Origin: Clostridiales bacterium
GTDB taxonomy: Bacteria > Bacillota > Clostridia > Peptostreptococcales > Anaerovoracaceae
DNA length: 64,000 bases
Reading direction: 5' to 3'
Assembly: GCA_015058155.1 (NCBI GenBank)
Contig: SVCW01000006.1
Coordinates: 14,408 to 78,407, forward strand
The number at the start of each line of letters is the position of its first letter. Positions within the stretch are counted from its first letter, which is position 1. Below the pieces are notes generated by a model. The model had not been told where the DNA came from, ran no database searches, and saw only the letters and a list, made by a program, of their open reading frames with translations. Made by a program: the position numbers and the translations under genes. Shown here piece by piece: positions 11,127 to 38,873 of this stretch.

Positions 11127-11870
11127 TCATATACCTCCACACTGCGTGCAAGCAGTATACCCGCTTTCACAAGCTTCTGATTTACTCATTTTTACAATAT
11201 ATTTTTCTATCGTTATACAATCAGACTTATGGTATACCTCGCCTTCAGTAAAGTAATAAACTATCCTTCCGTCTGCAATTTTTCCCGGATCACATGTCTC
11301 ACATTCACGATAGTTCTTTCTGATTCTGTCACTCATAATGCCTCTTACAGGATATGGTGTAACATGAGGACAATCTCTTCTGTGATATCTTTCTCCTCTT
11401 TTAGGCATGACATAAACGATGGTATCTGACTGAAAATCAAATCTGTATGGATTTATCGAATTATCCATGCCTGTCCACGCTCTGAAAAGATGATAATTAT
11501 TAACACTGTAATCACCCGTCATATTTCCCGGAAGTCCGGTATTACTTTTGATTCTTACATTGAAACTCATAAGACTGTCGTTTCCATCTATTCTGTACAT
11601 AGTAAAAAACTTGTTTACATTTATATCAGCCTCAGGAATTGACTCTGTTATTTCTTCTTCAAGATTATAAGGAAACATCGGATTTACAGGTAATACTGCT
11701 GATCTTGATGCAAGGAGGTTTGCTCTGTTACACGAAATGAACGCTGCTGTCTCCTGATAGTGAATATTTTTCATTGTAAATGCAATCGTTAAAACAGCGA
11801 TTACAAGTAATGGCAGAATTATACTTGCCTCAATAATGACCGAACCCCTTTTATTTTTTCTCCCCATCAT
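11127..11870 (-). CDS. TadE-like pseudopilin with Cys-rich C-terminal domain
   Basis: N-terminal TadE_N-like motif KRGSVIIEASIILPLLVIAVL; C-terminal ~85 aa contain 8 Cys (CPH…CETC…C…C…CTQC), zinc-ribbon-like. Confidence 0.6.
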   Translation of the reverse strand: MMGRKNKRGSVIIEASIILPLLVIAVLTIAFTMKNIHYQETAAFISCNRANLLASRSAVLPVNPMFPYNLEEEITESIPEADINVNKFFTMYRIDGNDSLMSFNVRIKSNTGLPGNMTGDYSVNNYHLFRAWTGMDNSINPYRFDFQSDTIVYVMPKRGERYHRRDCPHVTPYPVRGIMSDRIRKNYRECETCDPGKIADGRIVYYFTEGEVYHKSDCITIEKYIVKMSKSEACESGYTACTQCGGI

Positions 11871-11874
11871 ATAC

Positions 11875-13017
11875 TCAATAATTATGTGTAATCATTATCT
11901 CATCATCATCGAATTCTGCCAGTACAGAGAAACCTGTATAAAATTCACTGATTCTGAAAGTATCATAATAATAGTTATTTAAATTAACCTGTATGAGATC
12001 CATCATTCTTAGAAGCTTGATATCTCTATCCTCAAGAGTCAGGAAAATCATAAGATAATCATGATAATATAATGCATCTACACTCATTCCGCGCCTTACC
12101 ATATCCCATTCGTTTTCAGCATCTTCTGCCGCCCACGCAGCTATAATCAAGGCCTGTGTTGCAACTACTGCAGGTCCCGGTGTTAGTAGTTCTGCTTCTG
12201 CAAGAGCAGCCGAAACTTTTGCAGGATCTGCGTAAATCCTGGCAATATTAACCGGCGTCCTCAATGCAACGAAATATTTATGAACCCTGTCAAGATTTTC
12301 AATATCAGTACTACATCCGGAGATTATGTATTCAATTTCATACGAGAGAAATGATTCAGCTGTATTATCTGATCTCAGATGATTGAAATGCTCAAAAATA
12401 TACTGATTAACAAGAAACTTATCTCCTGTTTCAGCTATAAGCCCCTTAAGTCCTCCGCTTTTAATCTCAGGTATATCAATTTCAAATCCTTTTTCTTTGT
12501 TCATTGATGATGGTAGTTTACCGGTATCTATAACTCCGGTATTTTCAGGAATCATAATTGATGTAACTAATGAATCATCAGTATCTTCTGTCTGATTTTG
12601 TCTTTCAAAAACAGATACTTTATCATACATCGCTGCTTTTATAATCTGATCCTCAAAAGTATCAATGTTTGTAATTTCAAATCCTTCAGTATCTGCATCA
12701 AGCAAAGTTAAATCAAGTGAAAAAGCATTGTTTGAGTAAATATCCGTATGCTTTATATAAAACATCAGTTGTTTTTCTATATATTTATTACTTCCCCGGA
12801 ATGCAACTATTCCATAATCATTGAAGAGTCTTCTGTCATATTCAGAGAGTACAGACCTTGAAGAAAGATCAAGAATTGCTCGCCTGTAACTTTCTTCAGC
12901 TTCTTCCCTAGCATTAATGGAAAATACGATTACAGCGCTTAATAATCCGGCAAGTGCTATTGATAAAAAAACAGTTACAGCCCCGCGCTTGTCAGGCTTG
13001 AAATGGTGTGAACGCAT
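11875..13017 (-). CDS. TadG/TadE-like Flp pilus assembly protein (Tad_N family)
   Basis: N-terminus DKRGAVTVFLSIALAGLLSAVIVFSIN matches the TadE/G-like N-terminal signature; 380 aa; ATG verified at 13015-13017. Confidence 0.65.
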   Translation of the reverse strand: MRSHHFKPDKRGAVTVFLSIALAGLLSAVIVFSINAREEAEESYRRAILDLSSRSVLSEYDRRLFNDYGIVAFRGSNKYIEKQLMFYIKHTDIYSNNAFSLDLTLLDADTEGFEITNIDTFEDQIIKAAMYDKVSVFERQNQTEDTDDSLVTSIMIPENTGVIDTGKLPSSMNKEKGFEIDIPEIKSGGLKGLIAETGDKFLVNQYIFEHFNHLRSDNTAESFLSYEIEYIISGCSTDIENLDRVHKYFVALRTPVNIARIYADPAKVSAALAEAELLTPGPAVVATQALIIAAWAAEDAENEWDMVRRGMSVDALYYHDYLMIFLTLEDRDIKLLRMMDLIQVNLNNYYYDTFRISEFYTGFSVLAEFDDDEIMITHNY

Positions 13018-13403
13018 CTGAGATACTCTTCCTCATCAATGATATCTTTTGAAATGCTGCAATCTCCGGTTTTGTCTGTATTTACAATACCTCTTGATAT
13101 AACGGGGAATTCTGCATACCCTCTGACAATATCACTCACAATTGTATTCTCTCGATCAGTTACAACATAAGAATCCATGAGCCAGGCTTCGTCAAAAGTG
13201 TCATGTGAATCGTCACTATATGATACTGTGTTACTCATATTTCCTGCTTCATTCATAAGAGTCATATGAAGTCTTGTATTTACAATAACTTCGGAATATA
13301 GATTTATAGTTATGTACATGATTGTAAGAAGTGTAAAAATCATAATCGGATATATAACTGCAGCTTCGATCATCATACTTCCTTTTCTTTCCCTTAATTT
13401 CAT
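12975..13403 (-). CDS. TadE-like pseudopilin
   Basis: MKLRERKGSMMIEAAVIYPIMIFTLLTI (TadE_N motif); start moved to the MKLRE Met at ~13403, which lies just below the flp stop. Confidence 0.6.
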   Translation of the reverse strand: MKLRERKGSMMIEAAVIYPIMIFTLLTIMYITINLYSEVIVNTRLHMTLMNEAGNMSNTVSYSDDSHDTFDEAWLMDSYVVTDRENTIVSDIVRGYAEFPVISRGIVNTDKTGDCSISKDIIDEEEYLRCVHTISSLTSAGL

Positions 13404-13410
13404 GTCACAG

Positions 13411-13584
13411 TTAAATAAAACCGCCTCCGTTAAGTGTGTCAAAGACTGCATTTACAAAGTCTGTAATCTGTATTCTGAATATAATACCTACTGCAACACT
13501 GATTCCTATAAGGACTGCCACCTGAACAAGCTCCATCCCCTTTTTACTTGCTTTGATAATTCTTCTTTTCTTTCTTCTATACAT
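13411..13584 (-). CDS. flp: Flp-family type IVb prepilin (57 aa), not in ORF track
   Basis: Hand-found ORF: GGAGG RBS 6 nt before the ATG; MYRRKKRRIIKASKKG|MELVQVAVLIGISVAVGIIF... is a basic leader, a Gly cleavage site and a hydrophobic helix starting with Glu; sits between tadC and tadE as in Gram-positive tad loci. Confidence 0.55.
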   Translation of the reverse strand: MYRRKKRRIIKASKKGMELVQVAVLIGISVAVGIIFRIQITDFVNAVFDTLNGGGFI

Positions 13585-13596
13585 AAAATACCTCCT

Positions 13597-14136
13597 TTAG
13601 AAATACATAAGTGCAGGAGCCGCAGTTATCAGTATTAATGAAAGAAGCATAAGTGCCATAGGAAAAGTCAATTTGCTTTCTGCAATTCTTCCTCTTTCCT
13701 CAACCTGTTTCCTGCTCATCTGCCACATAAATGAAGCTTCTATATCAAGCTTTTTGACAAGCTCGCTTCCCTTATCGATATTATCGCTGAATATATTTGA
13801 AAGTCTCAGCAGTTCGCGCAATCCGATCCTTCTTGCGAAATTACGGAATTCATCTTCAAATGTACTGTTAACATTTTTCATTTTAATTGAAATATTTCTT
13901 AACTCTCTGCAGAGTACCGATTCGCTATCTTCTTCAGCTATTGTCTCTATTGCACTCCTCAGAACGAGTCCTGCATTTAATAAAAGAACGAGCTTGTTTG
14001 TAAATTCGGGAAGTTCCAGAAGTATCACTTTCTTTACTTCTTCCTCTTGTTTTTTTGCATTTTTCTTTTCTATTTCCTGCTTTAATCGCTTTATCATCCC
14101 AAATCTTAATATCTGTAATCCTGTCAGCCATAACAA
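13597..14136 (-). CDS. tadC: TadC-like type II secretion system F-domain protein (start uncertain; see finding on tadB overlap)
   Basis: T2SSF domain LLELPEFTNKLVLLLNAGLVLRSAIETIAEE plus a C-terminal TM; the ORF-track 'M' is TTG; first ATG (MIKRLKQ) is at ~14097; 5' end overlaps tadB. Confidence 0.7.
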   Translation of the reverse strand: MLWLTGLQILRFGMIKRLKQEIEKKNAKKQEEEVKKVILLELPEFTNKLVLLLNAGLVLRSAIETIAEEDSESVLCRELRNISIKMKNVNSTFEDEFRNFARRIGLRELLRLSNIFSDNIDKGSELVKKLDIEASFMWQMSRKQVEERGRIAESKLTFPMALMLLSLILITAAPALMYF

Positions 14137-14878
14137 AGCCTGAAAGTGTCATCAGAAGTGAAATCGTCATAACGATACGTCCCTGAAGCCCTTGATATAA
14201 CGGTAATAAATAGTCTGGTGCAATAATTCTTAAAAACAATACTATAAATACCGGCATGATCCCTATTACTCTTCCTTCAAAACGTTTCTGGGCAACATAC
14301 GATTCAATCTCCCTTACAATTGTCATCTTATCTATAAGATTTCCTGTTGTTATTTCTATAACACGTACTATGTCAGCTCCGGTAGTTTTTGAAATAATAT
14401 AAATCTCTGCAAATGATCTGATATCACTGATTCCGCTTCTCATTCCAAGCTCCAGAAGCATTTTTTCTTCACTATCGTTTGTTAGCTGAAACCGTCTTGT
14501 CATATTATCAAGTTCAATAATCATCGGAGAATCAATCTCATATAAAAGCGTCAGATTACTACGACCTTCCGTAAGCGCTTCTTCAAGATGCCTTCCTGCT
14601 CCGAAAGAAGAAGATAATGAATAAAGAAGATCTCTGAACTGAAGAGATAATAGATCCTTTCGTTTGCGACATTTATATTCTTTAAACAATTTGAAGGCAA
14701 AGACAATTACAGGAAGCGATGTCAGCATGACAACAGGAGTATTGTAATATAGATACTGAATTACAACTGACGAAAAGTATGATACAATAGCAACGTCGAG
14801 CTTCTCCTTTTTTGACATTTCATAAATGTTATAGTCTATCTCCGTCATATGAACATCCTGCCAGTTCAAGTTTTTCAT
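13934..14878 (-). CDS. tadB: TadB-like type II secretion system F-domain protein
   Basis: N-terminal TM segment, T2SSF domain (LLSLQFRDLLYSLSSSFGAGRHLEEAL), two C-terminal TMs; the last ~40 codons are K/R-rich low complexity read from the alternative frame of tadC. Confidence 0.75.
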   Translation of the reverse strand: MKNLNWQDVHMTEIDYNIYEMSKKEKLDVAIVSYFSSVVIQYLYYNTPVVMLTSLPVIVFAFKLFKEYKCRKRKDLLSLQFRDLLYSLSSSFGAGRHLEEALTEGRSNLTLLYEIDSPMIIELDNMTRRFQLTNDSEEKMLLELGMRSGISDIRSFAEIYIISKTTGADIVRVIEITTGNLIDKMTIVREIESYVAQKRFEGRVIGIMPVFIVLFLRIIAPDYLLPLYQGLQGRIVMTISLLMTLSGFVMADRITDIKIWDDKAIKAGNRKEKCKKTRGRSKESDTSGTSRIYKQARSFIKCRTRSEECNRDNS

Positions 14879-16079
14879 TATTGATCAGACTGTTTCCCGT
14901 AAAAACAAGTCCTTTGTTAATTTTATACTTAAATATAGTATTAATTATATAATTATTATTTTCAAAACCTTGAATTTCTGCGATTTCAAGGACTTTTCTG
15001 CCGACACCGTTAATTCGTCCGAGATGTACAATTAAATCGATTCCACGGGCAATCTGATGCCTTACAGAGTCACTCGGTACATCTCCGCTCTGCAAACACA
15101 TTGCTTCCATTCTCTCAAGCATGCCTTCTATTGAATTAGCATGCCCTGTTGACATACTGTAATGCCCCGTGTTCATAGCCTGAAGCATTGATATACATTC
15201 CTTTCCTCTGATTTCTCCTACAACAATCCAGTCAGGTCTCATACGAAGGCTGTTTCTTATAAGCATGTCCATACTTACTTCTCCTACCCCCTGTATGTTT
15301 GCATTTCTGCATTCCAGCCTTACAAGATTTTCAATTCCCCTGAGCTGAAGTTCTGCTGAGTCTTCTATTACGACAACTCTGTTACCTTTTGGTATGAATT
15401 CTGATAATACATTGAGAAATGTAGTCTTACCTGATGAAGTACCGCCGCTTACAAAAATGTTGTATCCTGCTCTTACAAGCATTTTCAAAAAATCAGCTGC
15501 CTCTTCGCTTATGGTTTTGTTTCCGACAAGACTATTCATATCAAGAGCTGCCCTGGGAAACTTTCTGATTGAAAGAACAGGCCCGTCAAGTGCTATATTT
15601 TTATAAACAGCATTAACACGGGCACCATTCGATAGCCTTGCATCGAGAATCGGACTTCTCTCGTTTACTTCACGATGCACTTTTGCTGCGATTCTCCTGA
15701 TTACTTCTTCAAGTGTTTCAACAGAATCAAATACTACATCTAATTTTTCAATACTTCCATTTCTTTCAATAAAAATATTGTCAAATCCGTTAACCATGAT
15801 TTCAGTTACCGTTTCATCATTTATATAAGGTGTCAGGATATCATACTCCGATCTTATTGAAAAGAATATTTCCTGAATCATCTGTCGTAGCTTTGCGATA
15901 GTAAGCATACTTACACTTTCACTCTCGAAAACTAATCTTTCAATCTCAGAAAAAGCAGATACATCATCTATGTCATACCCCTTAAGCATGATTTCTTTTC
16001 TTGCAATTTCCGTCAGCTCTTTTTTCAGAACAGCATATTCATTATTACTTTTTATTCTATTATTTACTTTATTTTCCAT
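14829..16079 (-). CDS. tadA: TadA/CpaF-family pilus assembly ATPase
   Basis: 416 aa; Walker A VSGGTSSGKTTFLN, VVIEDSAELQL, hexameric secretion-ATPase His box (MNTGHYSMSTGHANS). Confidence 0.9.
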   Translation of the reverse strand: MENKVNNRIKSNNEYAVLKKELTEIARKEIMLKGYDIDDVSAFSEIERLVFESESVSMLTIAKLRQMIQEIFFSIRSEYDILTPYINDETVTEIMVNGFDNIFIERNGSIEKLDVVFDSVETLEEVIRRIAAKVHREVNERSPILDARLSNGARVNAVYKNIALDGPVLSIRKFPRAALDMNSLVGNKTISEEAADFLKMLVRAGYNIFVSGGTSSGKTTFLNVLSEFIPKGNRVVVIEDSAELQLRGIENLVRLECRNANIQGVGEVSMDMLIRNSLRMRPDWIVVGEIRGKECISMLQAMNTGHYSMSTGHANSIEGMLERMEAMCLQSGDVPSDSVRHQIARGIDLIVHLGRINGVGRKVLEIAEIQGFENNNYIINTIFKYKINKGLVFTGNSLINNEKLELAGCSYDGDRL

Positions 16080-16146
16080 TTCATATATATAATAAAACAG
16101 CTGCAGAAAAAATGCAACCGTTTTATTGTAAAAATATGTAAATTTT

Positions 16147-16326
16147 TTAGAACAAAATAACTCCGCCTGATAAATCCATCATCTTAGGGTAACCTTCTAC
16201 TTCTGTTTTTCTCTTAAGAATATCAGTAAGTATTGTTCCTTTTCCGTCAAACTCTACTTTTGCAATGTTTTCGCAGAGTTTTACTCTTGACTCTTCTGTC
16301 TCTTTATAAACTATCGCAAGGCACAT
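16147..16326 (-). CDS. cooT: CooT-family putative nickel-binding protein (59 aa), not in ORF track
   Basis: Hand translation MCLAIVYKETEESRVKLCENIAKVEFDGKGTILTDILKRKTEVEGYPKMMDLSGGVILF: N-terminal Met-Cys2 and C-terminal DLSGGVIL resemble CooT (MCMAKVV…VDLRSGVISL); 10 nt downstream of the His-rich gene. Confidence 0.6.
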   Translation of the reverse strand: MCLAIVYKETEESRVKLCENIAKVEFDGKGTILTDILKRKTEVEGYPKMMDLSGGVILF

Positions 16327-16335
16327 AACTACACC

Positions 16336-16557
16336 TTATCCTTTCATTGCTTCAAGAGCTCTGGCAAACTCTGAAATGAGCTTTTCAGACAATGAAATAC
16401 ACTCATTCAGGCTTTCTGAAGTTCCATTCAGCCCGAGACTTTCAGCAGTTTCCTTAAGTTTTACGATTTCTTCAGTATGATGCTCAGTGTGATGTTTCAT
16501 GTGATGGATCAGTGCTTCAAGCTCCATTAATTTTTCGTTATTATCGCTGTTACACAT
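16336..16557 (-). CDS. Small His-rich protein (putative metal-binding)
   Basis: 73 aa starting MC; HHMKHHTEHHTEE cluster (7 His in 12 residues); strong AGGAG RBS 8 nt upstream; 18 nt downstream of cooC. Confidence 0.55.
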   Translation of the reverse strand: MCNSDNNEKLMELEALIHHMKHHTEHHTEEIVKLKETAESLGLNGTSESLNECISLSEKLISEFARALEAMKG

Positions 16558-16574
16558 AAATTTTCTCCTGTTTA

Positions 16575-17519
16575 TCAGATTGCATTATATTTCATTTCCG
16601 CTTCATCAAGCATGATTCTTACTATACTTTCAAACTTAGTCTTTGCGTCACATTCGGAAACTACCTCACCGAGTAAGCCTGCAACATTGATATCGTCATC
16701 AAGTCGCATCACTCCAAGATATTTTACTTCCTGTTCGAGAAGTCTTCCAATCATTACTTTTTCTATCTTGTCGCTTGTCACTTTATTCAGAATGGCTCTT
16801 ATTCTTGATATTCCAAGTCCTTCAGCCATATACTTGATTGTTCCTGCCATACCGATTGATTCAAATGAAGGCTCAACAACTGTGATGACTGTATCAACGT
16901 ATAATTCAAGGCCTCTTCCGAAACTTTCGACACCGGCTTCATTATCGATTATGACAATCTGTCTGTCATCAACTTCTATTTTTGACAGGAGAAGTTTCAG
17001 AAGATCAGATGCAGAACATGCACATCCCTGCATAGCATCTTCAATCTTACCTGCCATCATGAAGCTTAGTCTGTTATTTGTAGTAATGAAAGTTTCAGGT
17101 ATATCTTCAAGTTTTATGCTGTCCTGATCAAGCCATGATGAATCTTCAGCAACACCGTCATTGAATCTGTCGATGAAACTCAGAAGCGGTTTAGGTAAAT
17201 TATCAATACCAAGCTTTCTGTGAAGTCCCGAATTGGATTCATCTGTATCAATTACAAGAACTTCATATCCCATATCTCTAAGAGCAATTGCCATCATTGC
17301 CGCAACAGTACTTTTGCCGGCTCCGCCTTTACCGCATACTGCAATTTTTTTAATTACATATCTTGAAAGGCGCTTACTTACATTGCTCCTGAGATAGGCT
17401 CTTACGATATCAGCAGCCTTTTTCTGTTCTTCTCTTGTAAGAGCAGTACACATACCGCATGAAATGCACTCTTCAGTTCCTTTTGAAGATGCTCCTACGG
17501 GACAGTGAAAGAAACTCAT
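16575..17519 (-). CDS. cooC: CooC/AcsF-family Ni-insertion ATPase (MinD/ParA superfamily) with N-terminal 4-Cys extension
   Basis: Deviant Walker A AVCGKGGAGKST, VLVIDTDESNSGL, CxC motif GCACSASD, IIDNEAGVESFGRG…VVEP, all diagnostic of CooC; plus a ~55-aa N-terminal extension carrying C6, C18, C21, C24 (CxxCxxC). Confidence 0.85.
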   Translation of the reverse strand: MSFFHCPVGASSKGTEECISCGMCTALTREEQKKAADIVRAYLRSNVSKRLSRYVIKKIAVCGKGGAGKSTVAAMMAIALRDMGYEVLVIDTDESNSGLHRKLGIDNLPKPLLSFIDRFNDGVAEDSSWLDQDSIKLEDIPETFITTNNRLSFMMAGKIEDAMQGCACSASDLLKLLLSKIEVDDRQIVIIDNEAGVESFGRGLELYVDTVITVVEPSFESIGMAGTIKYMAEGLGISRIRAILNKVTSDKIEKVMIGRLLEQEVKYLGVMRLDDDINVAGLLGEVVSECDAKTKFESIVRIMLDEAEMKYNAI

Positions 17520-17548
17520 ATCAATTCCTCCGTATCTCTATGGAATTA

Positions 17549-18688
17549 TTATTCTGCAAGATTAAGTGAATCCAGAATGTGCTGAGGACCATTTTCAGGA
17601 ATATGTGAAACAGGCTTATTGATAATCATTGATAATGCCTTTTCAGGACAGTTAACAACACAAATACCACAACCCATACAAGTTTCTTCATTTACAACTG
17701 CCTTGCCGTCAACGATCTTGATTGATTCAAAGAACGGACAAAGTTCTGCACACTTGCCGCAGCCGATACATGATTCCTGATCAACAACTGTAACGAATCT
17801 GCTTGGCATGATACCATCCGAGAATTTTTTGTATTCCATAGCAGCCATTCTCATATCGCAACAGTCAGTACAGCAGTTACAGAATCCGCCACGAACTTCT
17901 CTGCTGTTTCCGATCATATGATAATTAGGCTTGTCTTCAAGCATTTCAAGGTTCTTCATTACTTCTTCCACAGACATATATCTTCCGAGTTCCATGTCTT
18001 CAACGAAGTGTTCTGCAACCTTACCGAACTTTATACAGTGACCTTCTTCAGGAAGTTCACCTTCCCAGGCAACGTCGTCATTTCTCATTACAGTTCTGCA
18101 CATGCATCTTACTGAGCTGATGTGTTCCTGTTCCATGAGAATATCAAGAAGATTTTCACAAGGCATTACGCCAGGAATATCTTTGATAGCCTTCCACTTA
18201 GGAAGAATTCTGAATTCTGCAGGTGGTGCTACGTATTCTTCACCTGCTGCTTCTGCTTCTTTCCATTTAGCACTGTATGCACCGAGATATTCATCAGAAG
18301 TTCTGATACCTTTTACGAGATCAAGGAAACCCTTGCCCCACTTTTTGATGAGCTCAGGATTAACAATACCATAGTCAGCAATGTTCACGATGCTCGCTGC
18401 AAAATTAACTTTACCGTTTGCGTGGTTTTTATGCGCAAGACCTGAAACTATTGATTCTTTTATGTACTTTTCAACTGTCTCGACATCCCAGCCGAGCTTT
18501 TCGGCTATATCTTCTGCAGTTGCAGGATATTCGCAACATACTTTTGCAGCTTCAACCGAAATCATATATTTCAAAAGTCTAGGGACATAGAAATTATCAT
18601 TATCTGCGAGGAATTTAGCCGCAACATCATAGTATTCTTTTTCTACTTTACAATCTACAACATATCCTGGAATTGAGTAATGTGTCAT
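17549..18688 (-). CDS. Cys-rich iron–sulfur protein with two C-terminal [4Fe-4S] ferredoxin motifs (uncharacterised)
   Basis: 379 aa, ~20 Cys: CIGCGKCAELCP and CMGCGICVVNCP; additional clusters FCNCCTDCC, RCMC, VCC; N-terminal HTH-like segment (AEDIAEKLGWDVETVEKYIKE); GGAGG RBS. Confidence 0.6.
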   Translation of the reverse strand: MTHYSIPGYVVDCKVEKEYYDVAAKFLADNDNFYVPRLLKYMISVEAAKVCCEYPATAEDIAEKLGWDVETVEKYIKESIVSGLAHKNHANGKVNFAASIVNIADYGIVNPELIKKWGKGFLDLVKGIRTSDEYLGAYSAKWKEAEAAGEEYVAPPAEFRILPKWKAIKDIPGVMPCENLLDILMEQEHISSVRCMCRTVMRNDDVAWEGELPEEGHCIKFGKVAEHFVEDMELGRYMSVEEVMKNLEMLEDKPNYHMIGNSREVRGGFCNCCTDCCDMRMAAMEYKKFSDGIMPSRFVTVVDQESCIGCGKCAELCPFFESIKIVDGKAVVNEETCMGCGICVVNCPEKALSMIINKPVSHIPENGPQHILDSLNLAE

Positions 18689-18723
18689 ATCTGTAACCTC
18701 CTCATTAATAAAATAACACCATT

Positions 18724-18760
18724 AATCATAATTATACAATTAATGGTGTTTTTCGTCAAT
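18724..18760 (-). promoter_or_regulatory. Sigma-A-type promoter TTGACG-N17-TATAAT embedded in a 12-bp inverted repeat, upstream of the Fe–S/cooC/cooT operon
   Basis: Minus-strand TTGACG (18754-18759) and TATAAT (18731-18736); the repeat AACACCATTAAT…ATTAATGGTGTT spans the spacer and -10, followed by ATTTT. Could also be the terminator of the upstream antiporter. Confidence 0.4.
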
Positions 18761-18784
18761 TATTCAGAATGTATTTATCACATC

Positions 18785-21106
18785 TTAACCGGCATTTTCG
18801 AGAAGACCTCTTTCTATAATCGCATCAGACATCGACTGTGCTCCGAGTACCATCATGATATCATTTTCCATGATAACAAAGTCTTTACCAGGAGTTGCAA
18901 TCGGTAGAAGATTTCTTTCGACGCCTATAATAATTCCATTATAATTATTCACAAACCCACTATCAACTATTGCTGTTTTGTTGAATTCACTATCCTTTGT
19001 GATCGGAATTGCTGCAGTGAAGAGTCTGTTCTGAATCGGAATATTATGTGCCTGCTGAAGATCAATGTACTCTTTGAGTGTAATCATTCCATGATCATCG
19101 ATTATAGCATAGTCTGCTTTATCAAGAAACATCATGTAGGCTTCAATATGCTCCTTAGTACCAAGACCGAAGATAAGATCTTCTTCCTGTATTTTATCAA
19201 GCGCTTTCGGCATATGTAAATGCGTACCATCCTCATGAATAATATCAATGAACTTGATTCCGTATACCCTGCTTGCTATAAAGTCCTTAACCTGTTTTCT
19301 CTTATATATTTTTGTAATCCTGAATCTGAATACATAGAGAATATCGTCAACCCATACAGTATCCTGATTTCCTCTTTCCTTCTTCGCATTATCAAGAATC
19401 TTCTGGTTGAAGTTAGCGAGGAAAGTAGCCTGAAGCTGTGCTGATCTGCCTTTGATGAATCCTGATCTCATTGAGAAGACTACAATTACAAAAGCCACCG
19501 GAATTGAAATATACGCCGGAATCTTTATGTACATGAATACGTTATTGATTGTCAGTACAATAAATAGCGTTGCTACAGCAATCGAAGCACTTCTCAATGT
19601 AAGAAGCGGAAGTATGTTTGCCCTGCTCTTGAGCCAGAGTTTGTTGAAGAGAATACTTCTTTTCGTACACATCATGTTGATAACAGGAATCATCGCCGCA
19701 AAAGCTATAACAACAGTTATCACATTTGCTATAATATCGTTTTCGATATAAAGCGAAAGTGTAGGATTTACATAAGTCTGTGACAAAGTGTATATCGCAA
19801 GAAGAAGTGATGTACCGATAAGAAGCTTTATGAAGTATCTCTTTAAGTAGCCTGACCAGTCACCTTCTCTTTCATGTTCAGCCTGATTATCAGAAGTATG
19901 ATTTGCAAGGAATGCTCTGAATTTGTTCGGCATCTTGAGATAAAGCTTTTTCGATACTTTTTCTCCGCTCTTTATAAAAATAGGTGTTGTGAAAATCGTA
20001 ATTACTGAGACGCATACTACAATCGGATAGAGGAAATCGCTTGTTACACCAAGTGAACTTCCAAGTGATGCGATAATAAATGAAAACTCACCGACCTGTA
20101 CCATCGAGAAACCTGTCCTTACAGCAGTTTCAAATGGCTGACCTGAAAGAAGTGCACCGATTGACGAGAATGTCATCTGTCCGATAACAGTAATAACACT
20201 GATAAGAAGAATCTGTGCCCAGTACTTAAGTAGCATATCCGGCTCGATAAGCATTCCTACTGATACAAAGAATACTGCTCCGAAAAGATCCTTCAAAGGC
20301 TTTACAAGGTGTTCGATTCTTTCGCCGAGTGATGTGCCTGCAAGAATTGAACCTGCAAGGAACGCTCCGAGGGCTTCAGAAAAACCTGCGTTTATGCAGA
20401 TTACTACCATTAAGAAACAGAAACCGAGAGAAACGATCATGAGAATTTCATCGTTTACGTCTTCTTTAACTTTGTTGAGGAGTGTAGGTACAACATAAAT
20501 ACCGACACATAAAATAACAACAAGTACGAGAAGCATCATTCCGATTTCACCTGCGAGTGCTCCGCCCGAAACGCCCTGGCTGACTGATACAGCAGTCAGA
20601 ATAATCATCATGAATACACCTACGATATCTTCTATTACCAGAGCCCCCAGCGTCAGCTGAGCAAAAGGATGACTCTTAAGATTCATTTCGTCGTAAGCCT
20701 TCATAATAATCATAGTTGAAGACATGGATAACATACTACCCAGGAATACGCTGTCCATGGTACTCCAACCGAGTGCGGAACCTACTCCATAGCCCACTGT
20801 AATCATGGAACCCATAACTACAAGAGCCGTGATTATTGCACTACCACCAACTTTTGCGATGTTATGGAAACTGAATTCAAGTCCGAGAGCAAACATAAGG
20901 AATATGATTCCTATATCCGCCCAGAGATCGATATTTTCAATATCTGTTGCAGTTGGCAGTAATAAAAAATTCGGGCTTATTAAAAAGCCCGCTAAAATAT
21001 ACCCGAGTGCTACGGGTTGATTGATTTTTTTAAAGATAACAGTAACTACACCGGCTGTTACAAGAATAAGAGCCAGGTCAACAATAAAATGACTGATGTG
21101 GTTCAA
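18785..21106 (-). CDS. CPA2-family cation:proton antiporter fused to extra TM segment and two RCK_C (TrkA-C) domains
   Basis: 773 aa; N-terminal ~390 aa Na+/H+ exchanger fold, central extra TM helices, two C-terminal TrkA-C-like domains. Confidence 0.8.
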   Translation of the reverse strand: MNHISHFIVDLALILVTAGVVTVIFKKINQPVALGYILAGFLISPNFLLLPTATDIENIDLWADIGIIFLMFALGLEFSFHNIAKVGGSAIITALVVMGSMITVGYGVGSALGWSTMDSVFLGSMLSMSSTMIIMKAYDEMNLKSHPFAQLTLGALVIEDIVGVFMMIILTAVSVSQGVSGGALAGEIGMMLLVLVVILCVGIYVVPTLLNKVKEDVNDEILMIVSLGFCFLMVVICINAGFSEALGAFLAGSILAGTSLGERIEHLVKPLKDLFGAVFFVSVGMLIEPDMLLKYWAQILLISVITVIGQMTFSSIGALLSGQPFETAVRTGFSMVQVGEFSFIIASLGSSLGVTSDFLYPIVVCVSVITIFTTPIFIKSGEKVSKKLYLKMPNKFRAFLANHTSDNQAEHEREGDWSGYLKRYFIKLLIGTSLLLAIYTLSQTYVNPTLSLYIENDIIANVITVVIAFAAMIPVINMMCTKRSILFNKLWLKSRANILPLLTLRSASIAVATLFIVLTINNVFMYIKIPAYISIPVAFVIVVFSMRSGFIKGRSAQLQATFLANFNQKILDNAKKERGNQDTVWVDDILYVFRFRITKIYKRKQVKDFIASRVYGIKFIDIIHEDGTHLHMPKALDKIQEEDLIFGLGTKEHIEAYMMFLDKADYAIIDDHGMITLKEYIDLQQAHNIPIQNRLFTAAIPITKDSEFNKTAIVDSGFVNNYNGIIIGVERNLLPIATPGKDFVIMENDIMMVLGAQSMSDAIIERGLLENAG

Positions 21107-21131
21107 TAGGCAGCCTCCTTACTAGTTATTT

Positions 21132-22823
21132 TTACATTGCTGCTGGTGCCTTCTTATTATCGAAGTCTGCAAGAATAATCTGTGCAATATTTGTGCAGCT
21201 GTCACCAATCTTTTCGATGTTGTGAATAATATCAGTATAAATAACAGTGAATTCAGGTGAGCACTTACCTGATTCAAGACGCTTCATATGCATACCTCTG
21301 AGTCTGATTTCGTTTGCATTTACCTGTTCTTCCTGTTCAAGAATATCCTGAGCAAGCTTCAAATCTCTTGTTTCGAACATCTTGATAGTATCCTTGATCA
21401 TTCTTGTTACCTGATCAAAGCTTTCGTAGATTTCAGCATAAGCAGAATCTGAGAAATCATATCCTGTTGCAATCTTTTCATTTGCAAACTCTGCAATGTT
21501 CTTGCAGTAGTCACCGATATGTTCTATATCTCCGGCAATATGAAGAAGTCCTGATAATTCCTTTGACTGATAAGCTGTAATAGTATCATTCTGGAACATT
21601 GATGAAAGATACTTCGATGTTGCGCCCTGAAGTGAATTTACGATATCTTCAAGTTCAAAAACTCTTGCTGAAGCTTCAGCATCCGCATCAATAAATGCCT
21701 TCTTTGCTTCATCAACCATCTTAAGAGCAAATTCACCGATTCTTGAGATTTCCTTACAAGCGAGATGAATAGCAAATACAGGCTGATCTACGATATTGAA
21801 ATCGAGATAGATAGGAGCATTCGGAGTCTTTTCTTCTCCTTCCTTTTCCTTAATTACAAACTCTACGAGTTTTACAAGAAGTCCTATACAAGGCAGGAAA
21901 ACAAGTACTGCAATGATATTGAAACACATATGTGCGTTTGCAATCTGTCTTGAAATAACATCAAGCTCTGCACCTGAAGGTGAAATTGCTGTAATAAGCA
22001 TAGCGTATGGCTTGAGGAAAACAAGACAAATAACTGAACCTACTACATTGAAGCATGTATGAGCAAGTGCAGTACGCTTGGCAGGAGTTGAAGCTCCGAT
22101 TGCTGCAAATGCCGCTGTGATAGTAGTTCCGATATTTGATCCGCAGAGAATCGGGATTGCTCCTGCAAGACCGATAACACTGCTTACACCGTCAGGACCT
22201 GCCTGCGATGCAAGGTTCTGTATAACAGCTATAACAGCCGATGAAGACTGTACAACCGCTGTAGCAATAGCTCCGATTACCGCACCTACGATAGGTGAAT
22301 CAGATACGTTGAGCATAAGTTCAGCGAACTGAGGAGTAGCTGCGAGCGGTTTCATTGTGTCACCCATGATATTTATACCGACAAAGAGTAAACCGAATCC
22401 GAATAACGTCTGTCCTACATTAACAATACTTTCTTTTTTACCGAGGAAGAAGTACATTACAAAACCAATTACTACAAACACCCATGCATAATCACCGATA
22501 TCAAAAGCGATGAGCTGAGCTGTAACTGTAGTACCGATGTTTGCTCCAAGGATAATGCTGACAGCCTGACGAAGTGTCATAAGTCCTGCACTTACAAAAC
22601 CGATTACCATTACCGTAGTCGCTGAACTTGACTGGAGAACTGCAGTAACGATTGTTCCTGCAAGTACACCGATTACAGCATTTTTAGTAAGCATTGCGAG
22701 AATCGCTCTCATTTTCTCGCCTGCTGCCTTCTGGAGGCCGTCACTCATGAGGTTCATACCATAAATAAATACGCAGAGACCTCCAAACAAAGTTATTGCA
22801 ATCTGGAATGCTTCGGAATTCAT
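21132..22823 (-). CDS. Na/Pi-cotransporter family protein with C-terminal PhoU-like domains
   Basis: 563 aa; duplicated NptA-like motifs (QSSSATTVMVIGF / QSSSAVIAVIQNL), C-terminal PhoU-like helical repeats. Confidence 0.85.
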   Translation of the reverse strand: MNSEAFQIAITLFGGLCVFIYGMNLMSDGLQKAAGEKMRAILAMLTKNAVIGVLAGTIVTAVLQSSSATTVMVIGFVSAGLMTLRQAVSIILGANIGTTVTAQLIAFDIGDYAWVFVVIGFVMYFFLGKKESIVNVGQTLFGFGLLFVGINIMGDTMKPLAATPQFAELMLNVSDSPIVGAVIGAIATAVVQSSSAVIAVIQNLASQAGPDGVSSVIGLAGAIPILCGSNIGTTITAAFAAIGASTPAKRTALAHTCFNVVGSVICLVFLKPYAMLITAISPSGAELDVISRQIANAHMCFNIIAVLVFLPCIGLLVKLVEFVIKEKEGEEKTPNAPIYLDFNIVDQPVFAIHLACKEISRIGEFALKMVDEAKKAFIDADAEASARVFELEDIVNSLQGATSKYLSSMFQNDTITAYQSKELSGLLHIAGDIEHIGDYCKNIAEFANEKIATGYDFSDSAYAEIYESFDQVTRMIKDTIKMFETRDLKLAQDILEQEEQVNANEIRLRGMHMKRLESGKCSPEFTVIYTDIIHNIEKIGDSCTNIAQIILADFDNKKAPAAM

Positions 22824-22879
22824 TTTTTTCTCCTTTTAACATTTTACTGTATTTTTCGCGTTAATTTTTAAAATTTTTA

Positions 22880-22930
22880 GAATCTTAACGAAATTTTAAC
22901 ACATAATCATACCGTATAATATTTTAACAG
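22880..22930. promoter_or_regulatory. PhoP-box-like TTAAC(G/A) direct repeats upstream of the Na/Pi cotransporter gene
   Basis: TTAACGaaattTTAACA (5-nt spacer, 22885-22901) plus a third TTAACA at ~22924, in the AT-rich region 60-105 nt upstream of the start codon. Confidence 0.3.
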
Positions 22931-23943
22931 AATAAAGCGTTAAACGCAATATTTTTAATACCAATACCAAAGCTTCCGTCAATATGAATTCTACCCTCCT
23001 GGAAGGATTCCGGATCATAATCAATACTAATTAATTTATCATCAGAACTTACGTTATTATGTACTTTTTCAACTTCTATCCTTTCTGATCCATTCTCGTT
23101 TTCGTGCCCTGAAACATCGTTTACGATTACCGTTATTTCTTTGCTTTCCTTATTAATAATTTTATTAATCATATTTATCATTTTACTGAAATCCATATAA
23201 TTACTTCTTGCATTTTTTACAAGCAGTATATTGTCAGCATATGAAAGTACTGATTTATTGTCGAATACTTTCTCCTTTGGAAGATCGATGATAATCACAT
23301 CGAACAATTCTGAATCAATCATCCATTTAAGAAGCTTATCATGTATTTCTTCCTCACAAAGGCATAACGGATTGATTCCCTCGCCGTAATACGGCGTGTA
23401 ATACTCATCATCTGTTTTAATAAAAAATGATGATGGTACTATTTCTCTGTCTCCGGAATTGAAGCATGTATCATCAGTTAAACGATATAGTAATTTTCTG
23501 AAAGAGCTGCTATTATCTTCTACACATACGTCAGGAAATAGTGAAAAAGAAATAATGCATGTTTTCTTATCGTAGTATAAAGACATCTCTTTACCAAGAG
23601 CCTTTGATATCGATGTCACACCTGCCCCGCCTTCACATCCCATTACGGTAATTATCCGCGTATCAGATTTCGAATGATTTGAATGATTTTTCACAGTAAT
23701 TTGAAAACTATTAACAACTACTTCATTGACTTCAGAAAAAGAAGTATACGCTTCAAAAATTTTAACCTTATCACTCAGTAAAACATCAGTTTTGTCAGTA
23801 ATGACAAATCCGTCAAAACTATGTATACGGTCGTAATCACCGACCGTAATCTCTGCTCCGATTTCCTGAAGCAAGAATGCTTTTGCGAGAGCCTCCCCGT
23901 ATTCTTCATCAGAAAAAGATATCAGTAATTTATATCTGTTCAC
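22924..23943 (-). CDS. TadZ/CpaE-like protein: degenerate receiver-like N-domain plus MinD/ParA-like domain with non-canonical Walker A (orphan)
   Basis: ITVMGCEGGAGVTSIS replaces the GKGGxGK[ST] motif (both Lys absent); Walker-B-like FDVIIIDLP; N-terminal KLLISFSDEEYGEALAKAFLL is receiver-like. Start reassigned to GTG ~23943 with GGAGG RBS (the ORF-track ATG 23994 has no RBS). Confidence 0.45.
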   Translation of the reverse strand: MNRYKLLISFSDEEYGEALAKAFLLQEIGAEITVGDYDRIHSFDGFVITDKTDVLLSDKVKIFEAYTSFSEVNEVVVNSFQITVKNHSNHSKSDTRIITVMGCEGGAGVTSISKALGKEMSLYYDKKTCIISFSLFPDVCVEDNSSSFRKLLYRLTDDTCFNSGDREIVPSSFFIKTDDEYYTPYYGEGINPLCLCEEEIHDKLLKWMIDSELFDVIIIDLPKEKVFDNKSVLSYADNILLVKNARSNYMDFSKMINMINKIINKESKEITVIVNDVSGHENENGSERIEVEKVHNNVSSDDKLISIDYDPESFQEGRIHIDGSFGIGIKNIAFNALFC

Positions 23944-24003
23944 AATAAACCTCCAGTTTCCATATTTTGTAAATATTATAAGGTTTATTTCCATATTTTG
24001 TCA
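23944..24003 (-). promoter_or_regulatory. Intergenic promoter (TTGACA-N17/18-TATAAT) flanked by two copies of 14-mer ACAAAATATGGAAA
   Basis: Minus strand: ttgACAAAATATGGAAAtaaaccTTATAATatttACAAAATATGGAAActggagg…GTG; one 14-mer overlaps the -35, the other the predicted 5' UTR. Confidence 0.35.
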
Positions 24004-24693
24004 ATCAATCATTTCTCTGAGTTTTTTGAGTGCCTGCGAAAGACCGCCTACTTCATCAATAATACCTAGTTTTACGGCTTCTTTTCCAAACAGTACAGTT
24101 CCTACATCATTTGCCATATTATCTGTACAATTCATTCTGCTCACTACTTCCTCTTTTCTTGCTTTTGAATGACTTACGATAAAGTCCACTATTCTGTCCT
24201 GTGTTTTTCTGAGATATTCAAATGTCGGTTCTGCAGTAATCATAAGACCGCTTGTCCTTACAGGATGAAGTGTCATAGTTGCAGTCTCACTTATAAAAGA
24301 ATAATCACTTGCTGCAGCTAGCGGAATACCGATACTGTGTCCACCTCCAAGTACGAGTGAAACTGTCGGTTTGGAGATATTTGAAATCAGTTCCGCAAGC
24401 GCAAGCCCTGCTTCCACATCACCGCCCACAGTGTTAAGAACTGTAAGAAGTCCTTTGATTTCAGGATTCTCTTCTACCATAATCAGTTGCGGAATCAGAT
24501 GTTCATACTTGGTCGTTTTATTATCAGGAGGAAGCACTGTATGCCCTTCAATACTGCCGATTATGCTTATATACTGTATATCACTTCTGAAATTACTTCC
24601 AAGTGTTATAAGGCCGAGCTCACGGAGAATCTCAGATGTGTTTTCCTTTTCTGCCGGAACACCGTTTTCATTATTTAAAATCATATTTATCAC
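24001..24693 (-). CDS. tepA: TepA (translocation-enhancing protein; ClpP/crotonase-fold serine protease family)
   Basis: KTTKYEHLIPQL, LNTVGGDVEAGLALAEL, LGGGHSIGIPLAAASDYSFISETATMTLHPV, close to B. subtilis TepA (YmfB). Confidence 0.8.
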   Translation of the reverse strand: MINMILNNENGVPAEKENTSEILRELGLITLGSNFRSDIQYISIIGSIEGHTVLPPDNKTTKYEHLIPQLIMVEENPEIKGLLTVLNTVGGDVEAGLALAELISNISKPTVSLVLGGGHSIGIPLAAASDYSFISETATMTLHPVRTSGLMITAEPTFEYLRKTQDRIVDFIVSHSKARKEEVVSRMNCTDNMANDVGTVLFGKEAVKLGIIDEVGGLSQALKKLREMID

Positions 24694-24815
24694 CTCTTGT
24701 TAATTAATAAGAATAGTTTTCTACAGTTTACAATTGCTTATCCGAATAATTTAAAATCTTGTGTAATATGATTTAAAGTCAGTGACTTCATAATTGAATT
24801 ACGGGAGGAATCAAA

Positions 24816-38444: not shown

Positions 38445-38873
38445 CTATTTCTTTAATTCTTTAAGGAGTGCTGCGCAGTGTGCGTATTCGGCTTTGATTG
38501 TTTCCTGGTCGTTGTCACGGCAGGCTGCATGGTAGTTTTTGTGGCATTCGATGAATTCGAGTGTTTTCTGGAGTTCTTCGATCTGTTCTACGACGATCTG
38601 CCTTCTCTGTTCATACATTTCGATAATTTTATCGTGCTGCTCAAATCCGGGTCTGCTCCACTCCATTACCCGTCTGATTTCTTTGATTGACATTCCTGAC
38701 TTTTTGAGACACTCTATTGTTTCGAGCGTTTCGACATCTGTTTCTGAAAAGGCTCTGTAACCCGAAGCCTTTCTTTCTATATCGCTCAAAAGTCCTTCTT
38801 TGTCATAATACCTGATTGTTGTTGCCGGTATACCGAGTTTTTCAGCTACCTGTTTGATTGTATATGTGTTCAT
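38445..38873 (-). CDS. MerR-family transcriptional regulator
   Basis: MNTYTIKQVAEKLGIPATTIRYYDKEGLL HTH_MerR; divergent from the Fe–S aldo/keto reductase. Confidence 0.85.
   Translation of the reverse strand: MNTYTIKQVAEKLGIPATTIRYYDKEGLLSDIERKASGYRAFSETDVETLETIECLKKSGMSIKEIRRVMEWSRPGFEQHDKIIEMYEQRRQIVVEQIEELQKTLEFIECHKNYHAACRDNDQETIKAEYAHCAALLKELKK

Follow-up and report, generated by a model that had tools for sequence, protein, structure and literature searches.

A four-gene operon for a putative nickel–iron–sulfur oxidoreductase and its CooC-type maturation factors in a Clostridiales bacterium

To our knowledge, only a handful of nickel enzyme classes have been described, and we know of CooC-type ATPases being thought to serve only CO dehydrogenase (CODH) or acetyl-CoA synthase (ACS). 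In Rhodospirillum rubrum, the cooCTJ genes lie together beside the gene of their client, CooS. They encode a MinD-type ATPase whose Walker A motif is deviant and which carries a CxC metal motif (features also seen in CooC1, 3kje), a CooT of ~7 kDa with a cysteine at position 2 (Cys2), and a small, helical His-rich protein, CooJ. AcsF, a CooC paralogue, inserts nickel into the A-cluster of ACS (Gregg et al. 2016, as summarized in PMC10134865), and is thus a precedent for a CooC-family ATPase with a client other than CooS.

A different type of candidate nickel protein is IsrA (VUZ27132.1, 901 aa) from Acetobacterium wieringae ISORED-2, a putative isoprene reductase (Kronen et al. 2023, PMC10134865). 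The Cys6 site in its N-terminal ‘cluster V’ domain was proposed in 2023 to bind nickel because the nickel chaperones HypA and HypB accompany IsrA homologues: of 988 homologues, 73% neighbour HypA and 56% neighbour HypB (PMC10134865). The same authors likened this site also to P-cluster or double-cubane sites. For the short ‘ferredoxin’ form of the protein, no HypA/HypB association was found and no link to CooC was reported (PMC10134865). The isr operon also encodes VUZ27135.1, a ‘4Fe-4S ferredoxin’ of 350 aa that combines a cluster V-type domain with a ferredoxin domain (PMC10134865).

We analyzed a stretch of 64,000 nt from a Clostridiales bacterium (GCA_015058155.1, contig SVCW01000006.1, positions 14,408–78,407 of the forward strand), hereafter the window. 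On its minus strand, four closely packed genes form an operon (18688..16147). According to the ORF listing, they encode a 379-aa Fe–S protein (18688..17549), a CooC-type ATPase of 314 aa (17519..16575), a His-rich DUF8180 protein of 73 aa (16557..16336) and a CooT of 59 aa (16326..16147). We consider it probable that the four genes make up a self-contained operon, which would encode a putative nickel–iron–sulfur oxidoreductase together with the proteins that mature it.

The layout described in the initial annotation of this DNA was largely borne out: all four linked ORFs are present, a Shine–Dalgarno-like sequence precedes each of them, and the 67-nt distance to the following tadA gene (16079..14829, minus strand) is exact. 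The spacing is as tight as claimed, but the gaps of 30, 18 and 10 nt given there are each one nucleotide too long (29, 17 and 9 nt). The near-consensus promoter was also recovered upstream of the Fe–S gene (TTGACG-17-TATAAT, 18731..18759, minus strand, agreeing with the consensus at 11 of 12 positions); it is identified only by this agreement, and such matches are no more numerous in the region than shuffled expectation. A 36-bp palindrome with perfect 12-bp arms (AACACCATTAAT-N12-ATTAATGGTGTT, 18715..18750; 16 pairs when G–T pairs are counted) spans the −10 box and might act as an operator, or as terminator for the Na+/H+ exchanger gene that lies upstream. It is not kept upstream of homologous operons in other organisms. 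There was no Rfam match at E ≤ 1 to a riboswitch or other RNA within 14000–25000, and no sign of horizontal transfer in the GC content, which is flat (33–42%) across 9–27 kb.

The 314-aa ATPase had been called a CooC, and its closest solved relative agrees with this. It contains the motifs GCACSASD and EAGVESFGRG...VVEP, and its best match in the PDB is the Carboxydothermus hydrogenoformans protein CooC1 (3kje, E = 4e-20), followed by MinD (8e-11) and, much more weakly, by Cfd1 (6e-4) and an Mrp homologue (9e-4). The P-loops of the ATPase and 3kje align, as do their CxC motifs (QGCACSAS and SQCYCREN, respectively). Pfam and NCBIfam hold no CooC-specific model against which the protein could be scored. 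The deviant Walker A motif (CGKGGAGKST, residues 62–71) is conserved in 41 partner sequences, and the GCAC motif is at least 90% conserved within the subfamily. Whereas the CooC1 chain starts at the P-loop, the window ATPase has a conserved 55-residue N-terminal extension with four cysteines, C5-x13-C19-x2-C22-x2-C25 (FHCPxG...CIxCGxC). This motif is present in 40 of 41 non-redundant partner ATPases; the exception is a split-gene ORF without the N-terminus. Judged by their sequences, the ATPases with this motif constitute a distinct CooC subfamily. It has at least 732 members (E ≤ 1e-10), and among the matches listed all are ~288–335 aa long except one fragment of 206 aa. Members named by JGI are called ‘CO dehydrogenase maturation factor’ and one source labels a member ‘Iron-sulfur cluster carrier protein’. 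The window ATPase itself is annotated as ‘adenylyl-sulfate kinase’, which is a misnaming.

The two small proteins also have counterparts in the cooCTJ set. The 59-aa ORF, previously described as CooT-like, passes the Pfam CooT threshold (PF10133, E = 4.7e-11, 43.3 bits against a cut-off of 27, positions 1–58 of 60), although a sequence search of the PDB gave no match to it. It begins with MCL, as do all six homologous sequence types found beside the Fe–S/ATPase pair, and therefore has the Cys2 that is the nickel ligand of CooT (PMC6006190). The 73-aa protein is helical, begins with MC and contains six histidines in the run HHMKHHTEHH (HHxxHHxxHH). Its assignment to DUF8180 (PF26551) rests on precomputed annotation, namely the Pfam match on an identical gene product in L099–L101, and a scan of the ORF against a local copy of Pfam gave no match. 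Homologues occur in L005, L006, L008, L051/52 and L067, with precomputed PF26551 matches in the first three loci, and several have classic His-rich N-termini, e.g. MSEHEHTHGGHTHTHGHG. By analogy, we presume that this protein is a CooJ-like nickel store or chaperone. Unlike the His-rich protein of R. rubrum, it is a DUF8180 member in which no sequence similarity to CooJ could be detected: a profile built from four DUF8180 proteins retrieved only noise and no CooJ chain among PDB matches at E ≤ 10. The likeness would be functional only, based on the helical character, the histidine cluster and the His-rich tails of relatives. In a literature search we found no prior description of DUF8180 or of such a CooC-like set; we met the term ‘CooC-like’ for CODH operons.

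We compared the operon with 98 related loci, of which 80 are non-redundant and 60 of these have enough flanking sequence to determine the neighbours. Of the 60, 45 have the ATPase gene directly beside that of the Fe–S protein and 15 have no adjacent ATPase gene; the order of the two genes varies. Reverse searches from two ATPase homologues on long contigs returned to the Fe–S partner in both cases and to CooT in one. Fe–S protein and ATPase are thus a conserved pair. Chance cannot account for the arrangement: these genes are found side by side again in many contigs that are unrelated to one another. The full set of four genes reappears in L005 with the order unchanged and in L006 with another order, and in L051/52 and L067 the Fe–S gene is followed by CooC, DUF8180 and CooT genes. 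Overall, in a minority of loci, spread over at least five further lineages, CooT and DUF8180 genes accompany the pair. Clustering of all neighbours within ±6 kb of the 80 non-redundant loci revealed no third recurrent gene family, and HypA and HypB were not among the recurrent neighbours of this short-form Fe–S protein. Genes of 340–370 aa of unknown function in L001, L008 and L103 are mutually unrelated, and none of three distant deltaproteobacterial-type contexts that we examined has an adjacent CooC-like gene.

One may expect a CooC/CooT/His-rich set to mature a conventional CODH/ACS encoded elsewhere in the genome, with the 379-aa protein as a CooF-like electron partner. In favor of this, as of 2018, 85 of 111 known CooT homologues came from proteomes that also encode CODH (PMC6006190), and the 379-aa protein does end in a 2x[4Fe-4S] ferredoxin domain. 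We nevertheless consider this explanation very unlikely. As reported before, CODH, ACS and hydrogenase genes are absent from the 64 kb (Pfam scan of ORFs ≥110 aa), and no CODH was seen near the lineages in which CooT or DUF8180 accompanies the pair. What is conserved around the 80 loci is the pair and not a CODH, and a genomic link of the ATPase to CODH or ACS is neither present in the window nor recurrent around these loci. In addition, the ATPase belongs to a distinct subfamily with its own N-terminal motif, and the 379-aa protein, unlike CooF, has eight further conserved cysteines in a domain without a structural counterpart in the PDB.

The same comparison bears on the relation of the operon to the adjacent Tad pilus locus. 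The initial annotation had placed the ATPase in the ‘TadZ slot’ of that locus and raised the possibility of co-option, i.e., that a CooC-like ATPase was recruited as its TadZ/CpaE localisation ATPase. Both kinds of protein belong to the MinD/ParA superfamily, and the ATPase gene does lie upstream of tadA, separated by two small genes and the 67-nt gap, with no terminator called between the operon and tadA. However, the neighbourhood check suggested at the time shows that the gene set recurs without tad genes, with a TadA homologue in 0 of the 98 loci, and that the ATPase accompanies the Fe–S protein instead. Its profile score points the same way: the ATPase reaches 32.8 bits on the CpaE-like model CpaE_hom_Actino, far below the cut-off of 154, and has a cysteine motif where TadZ/CpaE has a receiver-like N-domain. 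Recruitment as TadZ is almost certainly wrong, and the operon's position beside tadA is incidental. A separate ParA-like ORF of 356 aa with a degenerate P-loop lies upstream (22924..23994). With sub-threshold matches to AAA_31 and BcsQ, no PDB sequence match and no plasmid homologues, we did not accept it as TadZ and kept it as a lead only.

The 379-aa Fe–S protein contains exactly 20 cysteines, in line with the ~20 counted previously, and has a pI of 5.0. Its four parts are, in order from the N-terminus, a winged helix, a helical linker, a central alpha/beta domain rich in cysteine and, at the C-terminus, the 2x[4Fe-4S] ferredoxin domain. The Cys-rich domain contains C195xC197, C218 and C270xC272-C273xxC276-C277, and is followed by a ferredoxin-type C307xxCxxCxxxC. 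In an alignment of 38 diverse members the cysteines of the family are invariant. R160, E178, R198 and N261, which adjoin the cysteines of the central domain, are invariant too. This domain has no structural neighbour in the PDB. We rejected an identity of the whole protein as CODH (CooS) or ACS, since it matches no Prismane or ACS profile and no such structure. The family comprises about 2000 sequence clusters, annotated only as ‘4Fe-4S binding protein’. One further residue, C177, looked at first like an indicator of CooC linkage but was discarded. Among the 38 sequences of the first alignment, the motif ‘IPGVMPCE’ was confined to close relatives whose examined loci are CooC-linked, while distant members have Y or H at this position; the 80-locus set contradicts the correlation, because the ATPase is also found with members that have A, Y, F or H and is missing beside some that have C177.

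Given its N-terminal winged helix, the 379-aa protein might instead act as a transcription factor that senses redox state or a metal and uses this domain to bind DNA, for instance at the promoter palindrome. This is extremely unlikely. The helix that would recognize DNA is acidic (WDVETVEKYIKES), the winged-helix domain has eight basic and nine acidic residues, the whole protein is acidic, and the palindrome is not conserved at other loci. Moreover, in P0376 and in IsrA the domain shares its chain with an NAD(P)H-FAD oxidoreductase module, which is what an enzyme would be expected to show.

P0376 is a rare fusion of the same Cys-rich domain with an NfnB/GltD-type NAD(P)H-FAD module, which is the architecture of IsrA; like IsrA, it has Fer4_20 and Pyr_redox_2. 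We measured the kinship to IsrA through this protein; IsrA and VUZ27135.1 themselves were compared by their published descriptions. Profile A4 matches P0376 with E = 5.3e-28 over positions 16–292, and the window protein aligns to it with 26% identity in pairwise BLASTP (E = 2e-12). The cysteines of P0376 are found at 181/183, 201 and 252/254/255/257–259, followed by ferredoxin-type cysteines at 288–298, and those published for IsrA include the CxC motifs 180/182 and 254/256, followed by 289–300 (PMC10134865). By this comparison of sequences, the N-terminal 300 residues of the window protein (winged helix and Cys-rich domain) belong to the IsrA ‘cluster V’ superfamily. Both proteins have an N-terminal domain of ~270–300 aa with at least six clustered cysteines and two CxC motifs ~73–75 residues apart, directly followed by a ferredoxin-type CxxCxxCxxxC. 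The architecture described for VUZ27135.1 is that of the window protein. IsrA carries the NAD(P)H-FAD module, which the window protein lacks, having just a ferredoxin domain. Both are tied genomically to nickel chaperones whose usual client is missing from the organism or locus, but these are HypA and HypB for IsrA and the CooC-type ATPase, CooT and DUF8180 here. Because two unrelated nickel-delivery systems converge on one domain, there is strong circumstantial support for a nickel site within it.

An alternative is that the ATPase is not a nickel insertase but an Fe–S carrier (Nbp35/ApbC-like) or an ATP-driven low-potential reductase (NifH-like), which builds or reduces an all-iron cluster of the double-cubane or P-cluster type in the 379-aa protein, with CooT and DUF8180 as occasional add-ons. 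The near-universal N-terminal motif, Cx13Cx2Cx2C, resembles the cluster motif of the Fe–S scaffold Nbp35, and a CxC at a MinD-type dimer interface could hold an Fe–S cluster instead of nickel. The ATPase also has weak matches to NifH, Mrp and Cfd1, a member of its subfamily bears the carrier label mentioned above, most loci lack CooT and DUF8180, and the published comparison of the Cys6 site with P-cluster and double-cubane sites fits as well. We consider this alternative unlikely, though less so than the other alternatives weighed here. CooC1 is by far the closest solved relative, and the CxC of the ATPase falls on the nickel-binding CxC. Two dedicated kinds of nickel-binding protein recur with the pair, and the homologous long-form domain accompanies HypA and HypB (PMC10134865).

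Returning to the nickel–iron–sulfur oxidoreductase, we infer that the 379-aa protein would be the enzyme and the client of the other three, with the ferredoxin domain exchanging electrons with a soluble carrier. The catalytic cluster would sit in the central domain, at the two CxC motifs together with C218, C273 and C276/277, beside R160, E178, R198 and N261. The closest chemical analogue of such a site is the A-cluster of ACS, a [4Fe-4S] cluster bridged to a nickel bound by Cys-x-Cys; no ACS gene is present in the window, however, and the central domain matches ACS neither in sequence nor in structure. The ATPase dimer may spend ATP to open or prepare the client site and hand over nickel held at its CxC, while its N-terminal four-cysteine motif probably holds a [4Fe-4S] cluster by which the site would stay reduced while the metal is inserted. 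CooT, through Cys2, and the DUF8180 protein would gather and store scarce nickel, as CooT and CooJ do for CODH. By analogy with IsrA, the reaction could be the reduction of a small unsaturated substrate. Against this reading stand the 15 of 60 loci and the three distant deltaproteobacterial-type contexts with no adjacent CooC-like gene, as well as the small share of loci that have CooT and DUF8180. The earlier suggestion of an undescribed nickel-dependent Fe–S enzyme with its own maturation set therefore stands in part: the conserved pair, the reverse searches, the recurrence of CooT and DUF8180 and the lack of a nearby CODH favor it, but ‘undescribed’ goes too far because the Cys-rich domain is shared with IsrA-type oxidoreductases, for which a nickel site has already been proposed.

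These results point to a largely unexplored class of nickel enzymes. More tentatively, with the odds slightly against, the Cys-rich domain common to the Fe–S protein and IsrA may house a previously unseen Ni–Fe–S cluster in a new fold and so define a new nickel enzyme class, whose ~2,000 sequence clusters would be ferredoxin- or NAD(P)H-linked reductases of anaerobes. A large CooC subfamily is tied to a different Fe–S family, and if the assignment is true, CooC ATPases gain a third type of client besides CODH and ACS, and the distinct subfamily that serves it brings an Fe–S module of its own. Compared with IsrA (901 aa), this compact set of four genes, which comes from a low-GC Clostridiales MAG, is a smaller and simpler system and handy for heterologous expression, and could therefore settle the nickel binding and chemistry of the domain. 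One candidate chemistry, hydrogenation of unactivated C=C bonds, bears on biohydrogenation in the gut and rumen and on isoprene turnover.

All four genes of the module were called as ORFs in the same direction on the minus strand, in the order 379-aa Fe–S protein (18688..17549), 314-aa CooC-type ATPase (17519..16575), 73-aa His-rich DUF8180 protein (16557..16336) and 59-aa CooT (16326..16147). Gaps of 29, 17 and 9 nt separate them, and a Shine-Dalgarno-like sequence stands ahead of every gene. The initial annotation had made every gap 1 nt too long; its module coordinates, quoted motifs and cysteine count were right, with exactly 20 cysteines in the presumed client. A promoter match lies ahead of the operon (TTGACG-17-TATAAT, minus strand, 18759..18731). 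Centered on its -10 box is a 36-bp palindrome (AACACCATTAAT N12 ATTAATGGTGTT, 18715-18750), which lies 34 nt beyond the stop codon of the Na+/H+ exchanger gene upstream and is not kept in the operons of other organisms. Either a metal-responsive repressor could use it as an operator, or it could act as a bidirectional terminator.

On its upstream side, the operon is flanked by genes for a Na+/H+ exchanger-TrkA_C protein and a Na/Pi-PhoU protein. The host is a spore-forming Firmicute of low GC content (33-42%) and encodes SpoIIP, Gpr, LepA and RuvABC. Elsewhere in the window, we observed a 656-aa fusion of LytB/IspH (residues 8-282) with four S1 RNA-binding domains (5448-7418, minus strand) and a 366-aa aldo/keto reductase with a C-terminal 4Fe-4S dicluster domain (38985-40085, plus strand), whose gene adjoins a MerR-family regulator (38445..38873) and an ArsC-family gene. 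Two large sulfatase-domain proteins of 674 and 890 aa are encoded in tandem with overlapping ends (56326-60985, minus strand), followed on the opposite strand by a GH18-domain protein.

In the 379-aa protein, which is identical to MBE6030456.1 from a Clostridiales MAG, the one domain recognized by Pfam and NCBIfam is a 2x[4Fe-4S] ferredoxin domain at the C-terminus (residues ~300-355), and its PDB sequence matches are limited to that domain. Of 1.84 billion cluster representatives, 2,081 match a profile of its first 299 residues at E<=1e-3 and 1,005 do so at E<=1e-10. At least 720 proteins of the annotated collection match this profile, and those with names carry only '4Fe-4S binding protein', 'ferredoxin', 'RnfB' and similar labels. 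Across 38 diverse relatives, R160, P163, E178, C195, C197, R198, C218, N261, C270, C272, C273 and C276 are invariant outside the ferredoxin domain, and C277 is nearly so. One representative relative (P0370, 677 aa) is a fusion of the Cys-rich domain with a ~270-aa hydrophobic N-terminal extension that is apparently membrane-embedded.

A second representative relative, P0376 (834 aa), carries the family N-terminal region fused to Fer4_20 and Pyr_redox_2, which constitute an NfnB/GltD-type NAD(P)H-FAD module, and a terminal ferredoxin motif. The 901-aa IsrA of Acetobacterium wieringae, a putative isoprene reductase, was published with the same architecture. No domain is predictable in its first ~270 aa (Kronen et al. 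2023, PMC10134865), which contain six spatially clustered cysteines termed 'cluster V', including the CxC pairs C180/182 and C254/256; a ferredoxin-type motif follows at 289-300 (PMC10134865). P0376 has its CxC pairs at 181/183 and 252/254 and its ferredoxin motif at 288-298, and it aligns with residues 46-317 of the window protein (E=2e-12), pairing C195/197 with 181/183, C218 with 201 and C270/272/273 with 252/254/255. Because this alignment and cysteine pairing match the IsrA layout, the window protein is, as judged by sequence comparison via P0376, a short-form member of the IsrA-domain superfamily. It has the architecture of the 350-aa '4Fe-4S ferredoxin' of the isr operon, in which the same N-terminal region as in IsrA precedes a ferredoxin domain (PMC10134865). 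Although the 379-aa protein has a winged helix, this helix is acidic and the pI of the whole protein is 5.0; together with the enzyme-type fusions of the family, these properties make a role as a transcription factor very improbable.

Among solved proteins the ATPase is closest to C. hydrogenoformans CooC1 (3kje, E=4e-20), with MinD next (8e-11), and its deviant Walker A and its CxC metal motif both align with those of CooC1. Its subfamily includes at least 732 proteins at E<=1e-10. The best 120 members are 288-335 aa long, the sole exception being one 206-aa fragment. With this fragment aside, at least 90% (mostly at least 97%) of the query is aligned in these 120, so they share its N-terminal extension. 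CooC1, in contrast, does not have this Cys extension. The N-terminus M-G-x-F-H-C-P-x-G-x9-C-I-x-C-G-x-C is kept in 40 of 41 non-redundant partner ATPases, and the only one that does not have the Cys motif is a split ORF missing its N-terminus; in the 41, conservation is at least 90% for GCAC, D-x-EAG-x-ESFGRG and EPS. These comparisons place the ATPase in a distinct CooC subfamily, and its C5, C19, C22 and C25 resemble a single-[4Fe-4S] ferredoxin motif in permuted order. Public names in the family run from 'CO dehydrogenase maturation factor' to 'adenylyl-sulfate kinase'. The latter is the NCBI name of MBE6030455.1, which is identical to the window ATPase (16575-17519), and is probably a P-loop-driven annotation error, the APS_kinase matches being weak.

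We assembled 98 loci encoding relatives of the Fe–S protein from exact-protein look-ups, a genome scan and a metagenome scan, and searched every ORF in them with the window proteins. For 45 out of 80 non-redundant loci, a CooC-like ATPase gene is adjacent to the Fe–S gene (within 1.5 kb, in either order). The ATPase is absent despite enough flank in 15 of the 80, and the remaining loci end too early on their contigs to be scored. When neighbors within ±6 kb were clustered, just two families were recurrent, the Fe–S protein and the ATPase; the others were assorted transporters and acyl-CoA or amino-acid metabolism genes, and neither CODH, ACS nor HypAB recurred. The reverse test used two ATPase homologues picked solely for sitting on long contigs. 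Both are clustered with an Fe–S family gene (36% and 32% identity to the window protein), and CooT is also present at one of them. Since the Fe–S/ATPase pair is itself the conserved unit, it is improbable that the module serves a CODH encoded elsewhere.

The complete tetrad also occurs at locus L005 and, with altered gene order, at L006, while at L051/52 and L067 the Fe–S gene is followed by CooC, DUF8180 and CooT. Locus L008 encodes two Fe–S paralogues with the ATPase and DUF8180, and additionally a flavodoxin and a 370-aa protein of no assigned family. Such paired paralogues flank or follow one CooC-like ATPase at L008 (5783-11069), L047 (7959-11401) and L105 (6001-9168), which suggests heteromeric or alternative clients for a single maturase. 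Distant members of deltaproteobacterial type are stand-alone genes, so the ATPase is typical of part of the Fe–S superfamily and not of the whole.

The gene for tadA (T2SSE, TadA-family model) begins 67 nt downstream of cooT, and the module had been proposed to occupy the TadZ slot of the pilus locus, with co-option of the ATPase. This proposal is refuted: none of the 98 loci has a TadA homologue and the ATPase scores far below the threshold of the CpaE-like model, which leaves substitution for TadZ a probability close to nil. Given this absence and the recurrence of the Fe–S/ATPase pair, the position of the module beside pilus genes is incidental. Neither a terminator nor a strong promoter was called in these 67 nt, so read-through into tadA may be possible.

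The Tad/Flp-type locus itself (10599-16079, minus strand) encodes TadA (416 aa), two T2SSF-like ORFs (13934..14878 and 13597..14136) whose ~200-nt overlap may be due to a frameshift or a wrongly called start, a 57-aa Flp-like ORF (13411..13584), a 158-aa ORF, DUF5702 (380 aa), an unassigned 247-aa ORF and DUF6382 (175 aa). A candidate TadZ-like protein is encoded by a 356-aa ORF (22924-23994, minus strand) located 6.8 kb upstream of tadA, with two transporter genes and the four-gene module in between. It has only weak ParA-like matches (AAA_31, BcsQ) and a degenerate P-loop (GCEGGAGVTS) that does not contain lysine, and no PDB or plasmid homologues were found. Its annotated start is overlapped by a perfect TTGACA-18-TATAAT match (24004..23975), and translation may therefore begin further downstream.

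The 59-aa protein passes the Pfam CooT model (43.3 bits, cut-off 27) and begins with Met-Cys, the cysteine of which is the nickel ligand defined for CooT (PMC6006190). The 73-aa protein had no match in the local Pfam copy, and PF26551 (DUF8180) is assigned to an identical gene product in metagenome contigs. The core ALxHHMxHHNxHH is common to its homologues encoded next to related operons, several of which have classical His-rich N-termini (for instance, MSEHEHTHGGHTHTHGHG and MTMSDSEHIHEHPHVHHHEHG). Because it has no sequence similarity to solved CooJ, we regard it as CooJ-like in putative function but outside the CooJ family.

Taken together, we consider it fairly probable that the operon encodes a ferredoxin-linked nickel oxidoreductase with a maturation set of CooC-type ATPase, CooT and DUF8180 protein. 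The catalytic cluster of this oxidoreductase would lie in the Cys-rich domain and contain nickel, which the ATPase would install, and CooT and the His-rich DUF8180 protein would be nickel capture and storage factors. A parallel is provided by CooC, CooT and CooJ, which serve CODH (PMC6006190). Cluster V of IsrA may be a nickel site and has been likened to the ACS A-cluster or to the P-cluster/double cubane, and 988 IsrA homologues have HypA as a neighbor in 73% of cases and HypB in 56% (PMC10134865). Kronen et al. found no HypA/HypB association for the short 'ferredoxin' form (PMC10134865), and their paper does not mention CooC (PMC10134865). Homologous domains are accompanied by two unrelated nickel-delivery systems, HypA/HypB and CooC/CooT/His-rich protein, and this convergence is the strongest argument for nickel. 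In the main rival reading, an unlikely one, the cluster would be all-iron and the ATPase would serve it as an Fe–S carrier or as an ATP-driven reductase.

The Ni-dependent Fe–S enzyme suggested in the initial annotation is thus supported by the conserved pair and the CooC/CooT/His-rich linkage, and is now tied to the IsrA-type domain. A 2026 preprint, in which IsrA is a suggested Ni-dependent reductase, reports no biochemical characterization of it. This kind of nickel enzyme was known beforehand through IsrA, itself still only putative, and the window system would be a variant of that kind.
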